Sequence record: PZ179880.1
Reading direction: 5' to 3' (one strand)
Source of the DNA: a phage
Length of the DNA: 64,000 bases
The notes beneath the pieces were generated by a model. That model was not told the origin of the DNA. It saw only the letters and a program-made list of their open reading frames with translations, and made no database searches. This document shows, piece by piece, positions 27,463 to 33,013 of this stretch (position 1 is the stretch's first letter; each line of letters opens with the position of its first letter). A program made the position numbers and the translations under genes.

Positions 27463-29556
27463 TTATCCTTGAACGAACTTGTAAGGCATGTTTGTAATAT
27501 CTATGCAAGACGCAATAATTCCAAGAGATGATTCTACTTTCTGTTTAATATTTGATGAAACAAATGATGCAAAGTCAACTCTGTCTTCTATTTCAATATC
27601 ATCTGTCATTGCAACTACTTCGCCGGTTTCCATTAGACGGTCACCGTCATAAATTACTGATTCGGTGAGTTCTTCCGTAGTCATAACTTCAGCTTGAATG
27701 AGTTTTGTATTATTAGATGTTGTTCCGTCATTATTAGAAGCATCAGTTATTTTATTAACTTTGACCATCAATCCGCGTGGTAGAATAACTTCAGCTTCTG
27801 TTGCTATTCCGAGACTTCCTGGATATACAACATTAACTTTATGAGCTCCATCAATAGCCCATCCTATTTGAACTTTAACGTATTCAGGATTTTCTTTATA
27901 CGCTCTTATTTCGTTTGGATTAATAGTTATTCCTTCTTCATTTTTATCAACTGTTAATTCATTGCGAGCTTCTGGTTCTAAAAGACCGATACCAGCATGT
28001 GTAATTCCAAAACGTCCAAAAATGATAGGAGTTAAAGAAGTAGATACAAAATTTCTGAAATAGAACACTTTATTTTTAACTAGTGCTTCGTATATAGGAG
28101 CAGTCATACTTTGAGCACGATAAACTGTAATGCCTTCTGGTATACGGTCACCATTTTCAAAAGCTGAATCTAAATTATTTATCGCAGATTCAATTTCTTT
28201 TTCACTCATTACATCATATCGTTCTGGATTGTAGCGGCCTAAAAGAAGATTATTGATGTCAGTATATCCTGATCCACAATATTCTCTAATGCCGCGCTTT
28301 TGTGATGGAGTATATTTAGAACCATCACGGGCAATAGTAATATCAATCATTGGACCTGCACCAATTCCAGAAAAGCTATAAATCATTCGTTTGAGGAATT
28401 TAGTTTTTGCTGCGTTCCAGGAATTTTTAGTTATTTCTTCCCAGACTTCATCTGGCTGCCCTTTACGAGTTTTATTATGTTTATCAAGCCAATTATCTTT
28501 ATATTCTTCAAAGAATTGATTAACAGCTGCTGCGTATTTCTCTAAACATTTTATTGAAGTAGTTGGTTCATTTTTAATCGCATTAAGAATTACATCTTTA
28601 ATTTTTTCAGAAACTTCATTAACCTCACTTTTTGAAAAGAATTTATAATCATAGTGAAGTTCATCTGCAGTTCCTTCGGCAATAATTTTTGCTGCCTTAG
28701 TTTTAGAAGCTAATGAATTAATTCCAAGTTTCATTTCTTCTGCTTCAGGAATTAAAGGAGCTGTAGCAGGTTTATTGAAATTAGCTGCGGTAGATTCATA
28801 CTTCTGGAATAATTCACTTTCAAATCTAGAAGATTCTAATGATTGACTTTGCGCAATTGCTCTACGGGAAATTTTAACTTTAACGATTACAGCTTGGTCA
28901 GAACGTTTATCATTTTCTTGTGCAATAGATGCTGCAATTGCCTCATTTTTAGTTACTTGAGCTCCAGTATCTTTATTGATATAAACATCACCGACCTTCG
29001 ATTCAACTTTAGTAAAGAGCTCGGTACTAATTTCAGGAACTCCTGGAATGTCTTCTAATGATACATTTTTGCGATGTATAAGAATATATGCATACTTTTT
29101 ATCGTAATCCCAGAGTTCCTTAAGAAGGACGTATCTGCCACCTGAGCGACTACGAATAAGTCTATCAGCAATAACTTGAATTTGTCGAGCTTGACCGGCA
29201 GTTTTAGACTTAAGAATACGGAGCATGCAGGCATCAATTTTATACTGACGCATCGTCTGCATCGCAACAGTAAAAACTGAATTGATGTAATTAATTGGGC
29301 TTGGACCGAGACCTTTTAATTTAGCAATTGAACCTTTAGCAGTTAATGTAAAAGGAACAATATGCATCATTTTATCGCCCATTTTTAAATCGCGATTAGT
29401 ATCACCTCCAGATGTATAGGTACATAAACGAAAACCTGGTTGTTCAATTGCGTCATCAACATGAACTGAAAAAATTTGCGGTATTTTCTTCTTTGGATTT
29501 AAGTTTGTAATCGGAAGAGTAGTATCTTCGTCAAATAATTCTGTAATGAGTTCCAT
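27463..29556 (-). CDS. alt: Alt ADP-ribosyltransferase (copy proximal to gene 30)
   Basis: 697-aa from the second Met (MELITELFDE); ART motifs YRAQ, FVSTSL, EAEVILPRG; late promoter and RBS upstream; which copy is orthologous to T4 alt is uncertain. Confidence 0.85.
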   Translation of the reverse strand: MELITELFDEDTTLPITNLNPKKKIPQIFSVHVDDAIEQPGFRLCTYTSGGDTNRDLKMGDKMMHIVPFTLTAKGSIAKLKGLGPSPINYINSVFTVAMQTMRQYKIDACMLRILKSKTAGQARQIQVIADRLIRSRSGGRYVLLKELWDYDKKYAYILIHRKNVSLEDIPGVPEISTELFTKVESKVGDVYINKDTGAQVTKNEAIAASIAQENDKRSDQAVIVKVKISRRAIAQSQSLESSRFESELFQKYESTAANFNKPATAPLIPEAEEMKLGINSLASKTKAAKIIAEGTADELHYDYKFFSKSEVNEVSEKIKDVILNAIKNEPTTSIKCLEKYAAAVNQFFEEYKDNWLDKHNKTRKGQPDEVWEEITKNSWNAAKTKFLKRMIYSFSGIGAGPMIDITIARDGSKYTPSQKRGIREYCGSGYTDINNLLLGRYNPERYDVMSEKEIESAINNLDSAFENGDRIPEGITVYRAQSMTAPIYEALVKNKVFYFRNFVSTSLTPIIFGRFGITHAGIGLLEPEARNELTVDKNEEGITINPNEIRAYKENPEYVKVQIGWAIDGAHKVNVVYPGSLGIATEAEVILPRGLMVKVNKITDASNNDGTTSNNTKLIQAEVMTTEELTESVIYDGDRLMETGEVVAMTDDIEIEDRVDFASFVSSNIKQKVESSLGIIASCIDITNMPYKFVQG

Positions 29557-29579
29557 CATATCCTCTCTAGTGTTTATTC

Positions 29580-29610: not shown

Positions 29611-29797
29611 AATAATCTATTGGTAAGAGAGTACGATATATTTCAAACTTTGGACCTTTTTCATAAGCATCAAATGTTTCTGTGAATTTATTATAAGCAT
29701 ATGCATCTATAAATTCAATCATAATTTGTGATACAGAAGTAGAAACATCTCCACCTTCTTTTTGAGCAACGACAATTGTTTCTAAGTAAGCTTTCAT
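29609..29797 (-). CDS. Hypothetical small protein
   Basis: 62-aa ORF; ATG overlaps the gene 30 stop (ATGA); followed by a terminator hairpin. Confidence 0.6.
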   Translation of the reverse strand: MKAYLETIVVAQKEGGDVSTSVSQIMIEFIDAYAYNKFTETFDAYEKGPKFEIYRTLLPIDY

Positions 29798-31254
29798 AGA
29801 CCAGTTACCTCATGAAAATCACCAAATACATCCTCGAATGTATTAGCTTTAGTTTTATCTTCGCGTAAACGAATCGCAATCGGAAGAAATAATTTTACGT
29901 AATCAGTGCGGCCATCAGATTTTAACCAACCATTACATTCGCACTCTAGAATTTTTCCAATATAATAATTTTGGTTTTCCATAATGCGAGTACGGTCAAG
30001 TTCATGTGATTTTACACCGGCTTTATCTTTTAAGCCTGAACCTGCATTTACTTTAATTTTTCCACACTCTGATTCAAGAATAAATCCACCCGCTTTAGTA
30101 GGGTCTTTACGGTGAGGATAAATTCCTACAATTTTTAAATCAACATCAATTACTTCTTTAAATTTATAGAGATTTTTTGAACGAGCATTTTCCCACAATC
30201 CATCGGTATTTTTGAGAATAATACCTTCAAGACCTTGGTCAATATATTTTTTATAAATTACCTTAGCTTCATCTAGGTTATTTACTACCTGGTTTTCAAT
30301 TAAAATTACTTTATCATATCCTGATGCCATTTGTTCTAGTTTAGAAAAACGTACATCATATTTTAAACGAAACGCCGGAAGACCGTATATTTCTACCAAC
30401 GGAACATAATCCCAGACCTGAAACTTCATGCATTGAGCTTCTTTTTCCGAAATAGTTCCCTTTAAAGATTTATTAGCGATTCCATTAGAAGCAGTACGAG
30501 ATTCAGCTACTTCTGTGAAGTCTTTAGCTTTGCTAATTTCAGGAGTGTTAAAAAGAAAATCTAGGCCTTCTGGTTCCTTTTCAACTTGCTCATGGTATAC
30601 CAATTCGCCATCAATTAACACACCTTCTGGATGAATCTGGCGGGCTTCAGCAGTCATTTTGATTAACTCTTCCTTAAGAAGATCTAATCCTAGATATTCA
30701 TTGCCAGCTCGCGATAAAAGACGAACATCATCTAATTCATCGCCTCGGACTTCAGCAAAACACCGAGCTCCATCTGCTTTTAACTGTGCAAAGGCTGGAA
30801 ATTTGATATTCTTACTAATGCCTTTTTCATCATAAGAACTTGCCAGCATTTGAGGTTGTTCAGGAATTAAACCTGGCCAAACTTTGTTTGCAATAGATAC
30901 TGAAGCACCACATTCAAGGTCTCGCATCATAACTCGACGCAAAACTTCAACATCATCCTTTTTACCATCGGTGATATATCCAGTTAATTCCTCAATTGCT
31001 GCATTGCCAGTTAATTTCCGAGTAGCTAACGTGAATTCAATGAAGTCAAGCATATCGGTAATAGTCAACATTCCAAAACTCTGGGTAGCAATACCAGGTT
31101 TAGGCCATTTCTTGATATAATACTGTAACCCACGAGAATAAGTCAGACGATATACTCGTTTAAGCAATTCATTATCTTTATTCTTTTCAAGAATTGCTTG
31201 CTTCTGTTTAGTTGATCCAATAGATGCTATTTCATTCAGAATTTTAAGAATCAT
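29794..31254 (-). CDS. 30: ATP-dependent DNA ligase gp30
   Basis: 486-aa ORF; adenylation-site motif KADGAR; sequence matches recalled T4 DNA ligase. Confidence 0.95.
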   Translation of the reverse strand: MILKILNEIASIGSTKQKQAILEKNKDNELLKRVYRLTYSRGLQYYIKKWPKPGIATQSFGMLTITDMLDFIEFTLATRKLTGNAAIEELTGYITDGKKDDVEVLRRVMMRDLECGASVSIANKVWPGLIPEQPQMLASSYDEKGISKNIKFPAFAQLKADGARCFAEVRGDELDDVRLLSRAGNEYLGLDLLKEELIKMTAEARQIHPEGVLIDGELVYHEQVEKEPEGLDFLFNTPEISKAKDFTEVAESRTASNGIANKSLKGTISEKEAQCMKFQVWDYVPLVEIYGLPAFRLKYDVRFSKLEQMASGYDKVILIENQVVNNLDEAKVIYKKYIDQGLEGIILKNTDGLWENARSKNLYKFKEVIDVDLKIVGIYPHRKDPTKAGGFILESECGKIKVNAGSGLKDKAGVKSHELDRTRIMENQNYYIGKILECECNGWLKSDGRTDYVKLFLPIAIRLREDKTKANTFEDVFGDFHEVTGL

Positions 31255-31520
31255 TGCTCATCCTTCAAGGTTTGGTTTACAGCTCTATTATAAATCAATT
31301 CATCATTAAGCTCAGGCAAAGACCTATGATATGTAGTTCTAACTTTATTTCCTTGCATCCAGTGCTTGACGTAAATGAAACCTTGCTCTACACATTTTTT
31401 AAAAATTCGTTCGTCTTTTTGAGCTCGGAATTCTGGATTGCATCTAAAAAATTGATTTACGTGACCGTAATCACGTGTAGTATTACCTTCATTTTCATAA
31501 ATAGTATGAACAACAAACAT
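31251..31520 (-). CDS. Hypothetical protein (30.x block)
   Basis: 89-aa ORF overlapping the gene 30 start by 4 nt; co-oriented. Confidence 0.65.
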   Translation of the reverse strand: MFVVHTIYENEGNTTRDYGHVNQFFRCNPEFRAQKDERIFKKCVEQGFIYVKHWMQGNKVRTTYHRSLPELNDELIYNRAVNQTLKDEQ

Positions 31521-32359
31521 TAGAATGCTCCTTGAAAAATATTATCACCACTAGTAGGTCTATTATACAAATACTCTATGCCACCAGGTTTAATATAGTT
31601 CCATGTCTGAAACGGATGTGTCTGATATGGATGATATGGATGATTATAAGGATTAAATCCAGGCGTTCTCCAGGTAGTATTCCAAGGAAAAGAATTGTTT
31701 TTAACCATTTTCTCAATTGCATCTTTTATAGCTTTTTCACTATCAAAACTTTCTTTATTTTCCTTTGGTGAAAAAAGCTTATTTTCTACATCATTCCATG
31801 TATAAACTCGCTGCGCAGTTTTTGGAATATTGTCACGCTCTCCTCGAGCCATCCAATAAACTGGAACATTTAATATTTCACTCGCATGATCGCAGTGATG
31901 AGCGAGATCGTCAATATAACAAATTACGTTATATTTCTCTTTTGCCTTTTTGAACAGCTCTTCTTTTGAAGAATCATGACCACACATCATTACTTCTGAG
32001 AAGGCACCGGGAAAAAGAGCATTCAAATTAAATTGACGATTCAACAGAGCGTCAATAGAATCACCCAATGCTGTAACAGCTACAAAATTATAATCTTCCT
32101 TTAATTTGTTAATTACACACAGGGCATCTTTATACGGAGACAAGTAACGAATAAAATCTGAACGATTGTATTTTTCAATTAACTTGACGCCAAGTTCTTC
32201 GTCACAATTAAAGAGTTTACCTGGAGAAATAAATTTCTCATCTTGGATCATTTTTAAAATATGTTCTAATGGAAGATTATATTTCTGAGCAAAATAAGGA
32301 AGGCCTGATTGCCAGCTTAAACATACTCCATCAATATCAGTCAAAATAGTTGGCTTCAT
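31520..32359 (-). CDS. HAD-superfamily phosphatase-like protein (T4 30.2 position)
   Basis: 279-aa ORF; N-terminal DxDGV motif (ILTDIDGVCL) typical of HAD phosphatases/deoxyribonucleotidases; Pro/Tyr/His-rich C-terminal tail. Confidence 0.75.
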   Translation of the reverse strand: MKPTILTDIDGVCLSWQSGLPYFAQKYNLPLEHILKMIQDEKFISPGKLFNCDEELGVKLIEKYNRSDFIRYLSPYKDALCVINKLKEDYNFVAVTALGDSIDALLNRQFNLNALFPGAFSEVMMCGHDSSKEELFKKAKEKYNVICYIDDLAHHCDHASEILNVPVYWMARGERDNIPKTAQRVYTWNDVENKLFSPKENKESFDSEKAIKDAIEKMVKNNSFPWNTTWRTPGFNPYNHPYHPYQTHPFQTWNYIKPGGIEYLYNRPTSGDNIFQGAF

Positions 32360-32820
32360 AGAGAGTCTCTTAATAGGTTTAACACATCAATAAATTCAGC
32401 TTCGGTTAATATTGTATCATCTTTTGTTAGACCACTAGCCATGCTGTGCTTCAAAACTTTTCCTTTCGAGGCTTGTAATGCATCACGAAAGCCCTTGTTT
32501 TGGATCGCTGCTTCAAAGTATGCATTTGTGTATAATTCTTTCCACGCTGGAGAGTATCTTGAAAACGGAACTCCAAGCCAGAAGAGGGTCCCACGGTCTT
32601 GAGCTCTAGCATAAGACCTTCCAGCTTGTTGGGCGGCAAGCCCGGATAACCCAAATATACGACGTTGTTGTTCAACATTTTTCACCTTACATCCTTGAAG
32701 GAATCCTTCGAGACCTCCAAATTGGATACCATCCATAACGAAAGGCCATTGGGCGAAATTGCTTAATGCACATGATGGCCATCTAAAATTGCTTCTTATC
32801 TCTAGCTCAGACATTTTCAA
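32356..32820 (-). CDS. NADAR (YbiA-like) domain protein (T4 30.3 position)
   Basis: 154-aa ORF; motif LSNFAQWPFVMDGIQFGGLEGFLQGCK resembles the NADAR/YbiA signature (SNFA.WP...DG...E.F.Q..K). Confidence 0.75.
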   Translation of the reverse strand: MKMSELEIRSNFRWPSCALSNFAQWPFVMDGIQFGGLEGFLQGCKVKNVEQQRRIFGLSGLAAQQAGRSYARAQDRGTLFWLGVPFSRYSPAWKELYTNAYFEAAIQNKGFRDALQASKGKVLKHSMASGLTKDDTILTEAEFIDVLNLLRDSL

Positions 32821-33013
32821 TACTTATAATTTCAACATCAGCCCAATGACCATAGCAAGGAAGACGAAATTCAACTGGCCAGTTAGGGTCCTTTTCTAAT
32901 ATAATAGACTTAACTTGTGGTTCTTCATGTTCATCGGTATACGGACCTTTATACGTTACTTTATATGTGACCTTAATGTACTGAATTCCAAAAATCTTAT
33001 TAATTATATTCAT
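32807..33013 (-). CDS. Hypothetical protein
   Basis: 68-aa ORF, co-oriented and overlapping its neighbours in the 30.x block. Confidence 0.55.
   Translation of the reverse strand: MNIINKIFGIQYIKVTYKVTYKGPYTDEHEEPQVKSIILEKDPNWPVEFRLPCYGHWADVEIISIENV

Follow-up and report, generated by a model that had tools for sequence, protein, structure and literature searches.

An intact adfN allele and a nucleotidase-like neighbour in a T4-like phage: probably two early genes rather than one system

Introduction

Two adjoining open reading frames (ORFs) in the phage sequence record PZ179880.1 raise the question of whether a NADAR-family protein and a HAD-type phosphatase act together on nucleotides or ADP-ribose. 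The stretch analysed, called the window here, comprises 64,000 nucleotides, and the two ORFs of 279 and 154 aa lie between positions 31520 and 32820. The original prediction, made from the DNA letters alone, held that the NADAR protein might reverse defence-mediated DNA ADP-ribosylation or serve NAD/ADP-ribose salvage, possibly with the phosphatase as its partner. The evidence given below makes it quite likely that the two genes, adfN and 30.2, are independent early neighbours in the 30.x block of T4 and not a system, with AdfN removing ADP-ribose from DNA and gp30.2 being an NT5C-like nucleotidase.

The window belongs to a Tequatrovirus (T4-like phage). Both ORFs are real minus-strand genes and neither is a chance ORF. 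About 1.9 kb around the gene pair has 98.6% identity to Escherichia phage LYE-01, and this stretch finds matches in 690 phage records. The gene order corresponds one-to-one to that of T4, namely alt, alt.1, 30 (DNA ligase), 30.1, 30.2, 30.3 with the internal 30.3', and 30.4, and the block consists of tightly packed minus-strand early genes. The 279-aa ORF (31520-32359) is T4 gene 30.2, with 271 of 279 residues identical, and the 154-aa ORF is T4 gene 30.3 (adfN), with 151 of 152 residues identical to T4 gp30.3. The peptide strings quoted in the original prediction, LTDIDGVCL (32318-32344), PGFNPYNHPYHPYQTHPFQ (31607-31663), LSNFAQWP, and EGFLQGCK, are all present. The two genes do overlap as predicted, by the four nucleotides ATGA (32356-32359) that hold the adfN stop codon and the gp30.2 start codon (junction CTCTCTATGAAGCCAA; the layout is the same in T4). 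The NADAR gene had been placed downstream, which does not hold, as on the minus strand it is transcriptionally the upstream gene.

Identity and predicted function of AdfN

The product of gene 30.3 in the window matches the Pfam family PF08010 "Phage_30_3" with 235.2 bits (cut-off 36; E = 2.3e-70) over profile positions 1-138 of 138. It has the length of T4 AdfN and the same position between 30.4 and 30.2, and the sole difference is a conservative one (M125 in the window protein, I125 in T4). The AlphaFold2 (AF2) model has a predicted local distance difference test (pLDDT) score of 92.9. Its three top Foldseek matches are E. coli YbiA (2b3w), a Phytophthora NADAR in complex with ADP-ribose (8bau), and a DarG1-type NADAR of Geobacter lovleyi (8bat), with probabilities of 0.99-1.0 and template modelling (TM) scores of 0.49-0.66, and the rest have probabilities of at most 0.07. 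All 47 homologues aligned with AdfN (alignment A2) match PF08010, and five of them also match the Pfam NADAR family PF08719 (best E = 1.5e-7). The NADAR assignment of the original prediction is confirmed by these matches.

The residues invariant in alignment A2 are retained by the window protein. These are S18, N19, and F20 of the LSNF motif (codons at 32755-32763), E36 (32707-32709), Q40, R86, and H123 (32446-32448), and K43 (32686-32688) is kept as well. The C-terminus is identical to that of T4, and the helix 138-151 (32359-32403) is present in the AF2 model of the full 152-aa protein. The LSNF and E-G-F-L-Q motifs are conserved in both AdfN and the NADAR/YbiA proteins, which share its fold. 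In contrast, NADAR/YbiA proteins have Glu or Asp in the last strand where AdfN has His. DarT-associated NADARs carry an N-terminal extension that is lacking in AdfN, and AdfN, compared with the DarG1-type NADARs, is an orphan with no adjacent toxin.

The true start of adfN is the ATG at 32814, since T4 gene 30.3 is annotated as 459 nt (152 aa) and the published numbering of E36 and K43 fits only that ATG. The gene thus spans 32356-32814. The 154-aa ORF begins at a mechanically chosen TTG, and the TTG-AAA extension (32815-32820) is probably untranslated, so the ORF stands and its length is to be corrected to 152 aa. In RefSeq relatives, 30.3 is called as a shorter gene of 126 aa; this call was rejected as a gene-caller artefact, since its internal ATG start removes the invariant ALSNF motif. 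An example is found in NC_054945 (4157-4537, equal to 32356-32736 of the window), where RefSeq and several gene callers start the adfN orthologue at MDGIQ and lose 26 residues.

The T4 protein gp30.3 has been named AdfN, for anti-DarT factor NADAR (Johannesman, Carlson & LeRoux; bioRxiv 2024, Nat Commun 2025, PMC11825919). Resistance to DarTG1 requires AdfN, and AdfN also suffices for it. Rescue is lost with the substitutions E36A and K43A, and purified AdfN strips ADP-ribose from DarT1-modified DNA (PMC11825919). T4 without any DNA modifications remains DarTG1-resistant (PMC11825919). Phage RB69 is DarTG1-sensitive because a frameshift deletes the last helix of its AdfN and so inactivates this allele (Johannesman, Carlson & LeRoux). 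Another study shows that gp30.3 de-ADP-ribosylates guanine specifically in vitro and describes His as the hallmark of phage NADARs (Toxins 2024, PMC11125620). AdfN reportedly gives no rescue of DarT1 toxicity in uninfected cells. HIDEN-SEQ, a T4 transposon sequencing study, independently confirms the role of 30.3, which has a log2 fold change of -7.25 (q = 0) on DarTG1. The reversal of defence-made DNA ADP-ribosylation by a NADAR protein was therefore rightly predicted and is already published (2024-2025), for a T4 AdfN that is 99.3% identical to the window protein (PMC11825919, PMC11125620).

From the identity of 151 of 152 residues, the window adfN is predicted to be an intact allele of this DNA ADP-ribosylglycohydrolase; the allele itself is known from sequence alone. 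In the proposed course of events, host DarT1 would ADP-ribosylate guanines in replicating phage DNA. Using E36 and K43, AdfN would hydrolyse the base-ribose bond; at the position of its phage-specific H123, Glu or Asp is usual. The removal of ADP-ribose would then restore phage replication. As for the NAD/ADP-ribose salvage role that had been offered as the alternative, nothing was found in its support.

gp30.2 as a HAD phosphatase

The family of gp30.2 is phrog_420 (E = 1.7e-92), which has the annotation of function unknown. Direct scans of gp30.2 against Pfam (E <= 0.1), NCBIfam (E <= 1), PADLOC, and, as a single sequence, the PDB were all empty, so that a direct Pfam scan does not return HAD. 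The assignment is carried by the catalytic motifs, the fold, and transitive homology. In 41 T4-like homologues (alignment A1), D8, D10, and K132 never vary, and conservation reaches 90% or more at T96, D150, and D151. Among 50 remote relatives (alignment A3), D8, D10, R108, and K132 are still invariant. Motif I is encoded at 32330-32338 (D8/D10), motif II at 32072-32074 (T96), motif III at 31964-31966 (K132), and motif IV at 31907-31912 (D150-D151). The second Asp of HAD motif I marks a phosphotransferase and not a dehalogenase.

The AF2 model of gp30.2 is confident over residues 1-200 (pLDDT >90), which form the catalytic domain (31760-32359). It has the Rossmannoid HAD core fold, and a C1 cap is inserted between motifs I and II as a purely helical stretch of about 80 residues (helices 16-26, 32-40, 46-49, 54-65, 68-72, and 77-86). 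Foldseek gives 99 PDB matches at E <= 1e-3, and all of these are HAD enzymes. With four catalytic motifs and a confident fold, gp30.2 is a genuine HAD phosphatase, as had been proposed.

The tightest superpositions of gp30.2 are with the 5'(3')-deoxyribonucleotidases 3bwv, 4yih, 2i7d, 2jao, 4mum, and 1q92. The best PDB match of the family profile is mouse cdN (2jao), which is weak (E = 0.15) and aligns DvDGvlvkWqSgL to NMDGVLADFESGL. The cap aromatics W16, F43, and Y64 vary little or not at all in A1, and in the same weak alignment (E = 0.15) they stand opposite Phe, Phe, and Tyr of mouse cdN. The corresponding aromatics of cdN stack on the nucleobase. An exhaustive profile search gave 1239 clusters, of which 50 were sampled for Pfam, and 17 of these 50 remote relatives match the Pfam family NT5C (PF06941). 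Three of them, P0345, P0276, and P0330, pass its cut-off of 24.8 bits with 37.3, 33.8, and 26.6 bits, and hhalign of A1 against these three gives 99.8% and E = 1e-29 over 187 columns, which is the whole domain.

Compared with the NT5C family (PF06941; 2jao, 2i7d, 4yih, 1q92, and 3bwv of S. epidermidis), gp30.2 has in common the HAD core, DxDGV, an aromatic residue eight positions past the nucleophile (W16 in gp30.2, Phe in cdN), a four-helix C1 cap, and a similar length. It differs in lying below every Pfam threshold, in having 15-21% identity to the solved members, and in carrying a disordered C-terminal tail of about 80 aa where NT5C enzymes have none. As gp30.2 itself has no PF06941 match at the gathering threshold, it is called NT5C-like here and not a Pfam NT5C member. 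The kinship suggests that it is probably a (deoxy)nucleoside monophosphate phosphatase. Two further lines of inquiry added nothing to this. The fusion proteins of the family (P0254, P0305, P0207, and P0246) were scanned for partner domains and none was informative, and literature searches for gp30.2, also under its accession numbers, and for phage NT5C nucleotidases brought up no relevant work and no biochemical data.

In its proposed action, gp30.2 would be a Mg-dependent HAD phosphomonoesterase with D8 as nucleophile and D10 as acid/base; the phosphate would be bound by T96 and K132, and Mg by D150/D151. The helical C1 cap would close over a small substrate. The most likely reaction, judged from the NT5C kinship, would be the conversion of a (deoxy)nucleoside 5'-monophosphate to nucleoside and phosphate, in an accessory nucleotide-pool role dispensable in laboratory hosts.

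The C-terminal tail of gp30.2

The tail of gp30.2 comprises residues 201-279 (31520-31759 with the stop codon) and has one short helix (205-220), the rest being disordered. The pLDDT is <50 at residues 227-233, 240-261, and 266-279. The Pro/Tyr/His-rich stretch PGFNPYNHPYHPYQTHPFQ lies within this tail and is disordered. The tail had been described as unusual for its Pro, Tyr, and His content. Such a tail is indeed present, and its His/Tyr richness is confined to the T4 clade; the tails of the family as a whole are enriched in Pro, Trp, and Thr. Tail length among 100 cluster representatives ranges from 1 to 149 aa, and 39 of the 100 have no tail. The motif G-(T/G)-G-I-E-Y-L-x-x-(Q/R)-P-T recurs near the end of divergent tails in several phage clades, and the window protein has it as GGIEYLYNRPT (residues 259-270; 31550-31585). 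Other clades have different terminal motifs, among them DYVLLNKVTAND, LRAYY/LRATF, and GTALLGMA-LPIITG. Such clade-specific motifs suggest that the disordered tail probably carries short docking motifs.

Do the two genes act together?

An obligate partnership of AdfN and gp30.2 is largely refuted by the HIDEN-SEQ data. In the T4 library, gene 30.2 tolerates insertions at 72 of 72 TA sites. In the comparison of control with DarTG1, it is unchanged, from 271.5 to 249.8 (log2 fold change -0.12, p = 0.61, q = 1, 71 sites), as against -7.25 for 30.3, and in this comparison only 30.3 and 30.4 are significant genome-wide. Synteny was surveyed in 80 viral loci that encode a relative of gp30.2. A NADAR gene adjoins the HAD gene in 22 of these and sits 264-1216 nt upstream of it in another 15; in the other 43, no NADAR gene occurs within 5 kb. 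Near the most divergent HAD relatives there is none at all. By established chemistry, ADP-ribose as the product of AdfN has no phosphomonoester that a HAD phosphatase could attack directly.

Several points weigh against complete independence. AdfN acts fully only during T-even infection, and the authors of the AdfN study consider it likely that T-even phages encode a further factor for full AdfN activity (PMC11825919). In the 37 of 80 loci that have a NADAR within 5 kb, it is always upstream and on the same strand. Both gp30.2 and AdfN occur in nearly all T4-like phages (1439 and 1511 phage records), and the host breakdowns of the two agree. The nucleotide-pool role of gp30.2 is putative, as 30.2 has no known phenotype in LB, M9, or DarTG1 and is neutral in the HIDEN-SEQ comparison of LB with M9. 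A subtle or redundant link between 30.2 and adfN may therefore exist.

A functional pair would have gp30.2 either assist AdfN as the missing T-even factor, by stabilising or localising it, or process the released product. The latter could proceed by a Nudix enzyme that splits ADP-ribose to adenosine monophosphate and ribose-5-phosphate, both of which gp30.2 would then dephosphorylate. The overlap of four nucleotides on the same strand, the constant upstream position of NADAR, and the inferred missing factor can all be cited for such a pair. Two of the apparent signs of coupling were rejected as evidence. Co-occurrence at the genome level means shared ancestry, given the near-universality of both genes. 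The ORF overlap is the rule in the block, where almost every junction overlaps (30.4/30.3 by 8 nt, 30.3/30.2 by 4 nt, 30.2/30.1 by 1 nt, and 30.1/30 by 4 nt). Because 30.2 is unaffected on DarTG1, adjacency occurs in few loci, overlaps are common in the block, and ADP-ribose has no phosphomonoester, the pair is unsupported and is considered very improbable. The suggestion that the HAD phosphatase works with the NADAR protein accordingly finds no support here.

Other explanations for gp30.2

The most constant neighbour of gp30.2-type genes is DNA ligase, which adjoins them in 64 of the 80 loci and is no farther than 5 kb away in 75. The ligase keeps within two genes of the HAD gene even in loci with inverted order and no NADAR (L077-L080 and L083-L085). 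This linkage agrees with an end-healing role, in which gp30.2 would be a nucleic-acid 3'-phosphatase that prepares nicks for the adjacent ligase, like the HAD phosphatase domain of the T4 polynucleotide kinase phosphatase (PNKP). That domain (PseT; 1ltq, 5uj0) belongs to the same superfamily and the same phage, has the DxDGT/V nucleophile motif, and is functionally associated with ligase; a weak HAD_PNKP match (E = 0.0032) also occurs in one remote relative of gp30.2. Under the established HAD classification, polymer-acting phosphatases of the PNKP type have no helical cap, whereas gp30.2 is not capless (C0) but carries about 80 helical residues between motifs I and II (helices 16-86). T4-like genomes are moreover strongly syntenic, so adjacency alone is weak evidence, and the ligase linkage may be either functional or frozen synteny. 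The end-healing role is judged improbable.

It is rather unlikely, though conceivable, that gp30.2 is a counter-defence or house-cleaning enzyme acting on a non-canonical or defence-derived nucleotide, with a role invisible in the laboratory hosts tested. A gene that is near-universal, has strictly conserved catalytic residues, and is dispensable in K-12 shows the usual signature of conditionally useful accessory genes. The block already holds a counter-defence gene, and the tail is variable and of docking type. In two divergent T4-superfamily contigs, L083 (1722-2132) and L085 (5585-6004), an ORF of 136-139 aa (phrog_2831) overlaps the start of the HAD gene. One of the two proteins has a weak MazG-like match in Pfam, which is below threshold (E = 0.068; 13.9 bits against 22). 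If this match were real, a nucleoside triphosphate pyrophosphohydrolase beside a nucleotidase would suggest a two-step nucleotide-degradation module. Against these points, gp30.2 has no match in PADLOC or to any defence-related entry, and 30.2 is not listed among the hits in the main text of HIDEN-SEQ. Only with low confidence can gp30.2 thus be pictured as a conditionally important, ligase-linked nucleotidase with a non-canonical or defence-derived substrate and a tail that docks to a phage or host partner, serving counter-defence or pool sanitising beside AdfN.

Gene 30.4 and the translation of adfN

Besides adfN, gene 30.4 is the only T4 gene that is significantly depleted on DarTG1 in the HIDEN-SEQ data (log2 fold change -1.79, q = 0.014). 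It encodes 68 aa (32807-33013; phrog_2042) and is the upstream neighbour of adfN. Unlike the neighbouring genes, adfN lacks a Shine-Dalgarno sequence, as the 25 nt upstream contain no GGAG or AGGA. Its start codon falls within the last 8 nt of 30.4, in the ATGTCTGA overlap (32807-32814; junction sequence TATTGAAAATGTCTGAGCTA). Because adfN has no Shine-Dalgarno sequence of its own and starts within 30.4, its translation is probably coupled to that of 30.4. The depletion of 30.4 is then probably a polar effect, in which insertions would lower AdfN translation. Alternatively, gp30.4 could be the further factor postulated by the AdfN authors. Only 14 of 37 loci have gene 30.4 together with the NADAR gene.

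Variation at adfN and neighbouring features

Many natural T4-like phages have a disrupted adfN (P0107, P0113-P0116, P0121, P0151, and P0194). Deletions join the N-termini of gp30.4, gp30.7, gp30.8, or an ORF of the 30.9 region to the C-terminal part of AdfN, and the catalytic E36 and K43 are lost. In other variants, a frameshift leads into the 30.3' frame or out of it, and P0115 and P0116 join the 30.3' frame to AdfN. This suggests recurrent loss of AdfN and a hot spot of deletion at 30.3-30.9, although some cases could be assembly artefacts. The 30.3' ORF itself (75 aa; 32451-32678), in another frame inside adfN, is conserved in the window, and T4 annotates it as an internal translation product.

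The length of published constructs and profiles also deserves mention. The methods of one study give residues 1-208 for the "E. coli T4 phage NADAR (gp30.3)" construct (PMC11125620), though T4 gp30.3 has 152 aa, and PHROG 652 is longer as well, with 296 positions and the AdfN match at 126-272. It follows that there must be longer homologues that carry an N-terminal extension, and the construct may be something other than the actual T4 protein.

Further genes of the block, all on the minus strand, are gene 30.1 (31251-31520; 89 aa, DUF3045, Pfam PF11243, E = 1.6e-63), gene 30 for the ATP-dependent DNA ligase (29794-31254; Pfam PF01068), and alt for the Alt-like ADP-ribosyltransferase (27463-29559; Pfam PF03496, E = 1.8e-37). 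The last of these bears out the statement that the phage encodes an ADP-ribosyltransferase of its own. Nothing was found that supports a link of the NADAR and HAD genes to the ADP-ribosyltransferases of the phage. A scan of the block for promoters and terminators was no better than that of shuffled sequence (20 promoter-like sites against 20.8 expected). In NC_054945, a 58-aa orthologue of gp30.9 bears the label "1,4-alpha-glucan branching enzyme", an impossible assignment for a protein so small.

Significance

To the knowledge of AdfN, the window adds only another near-identical allele. The question of which T-even factor AdfN needs is narrowed, as the published transposon data exclude 30.2 as an indispensable partner and flag only 30.4. 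The residual novelty is the NT5C-like nucleotidase. Present in about 1400 genomes and with an active site that does not vary, gp30.2 is among the most widely conserved uncharacterised enzymes of T4-like phages, and its placement beside NT5C gives a concrete panel of substrates for it.

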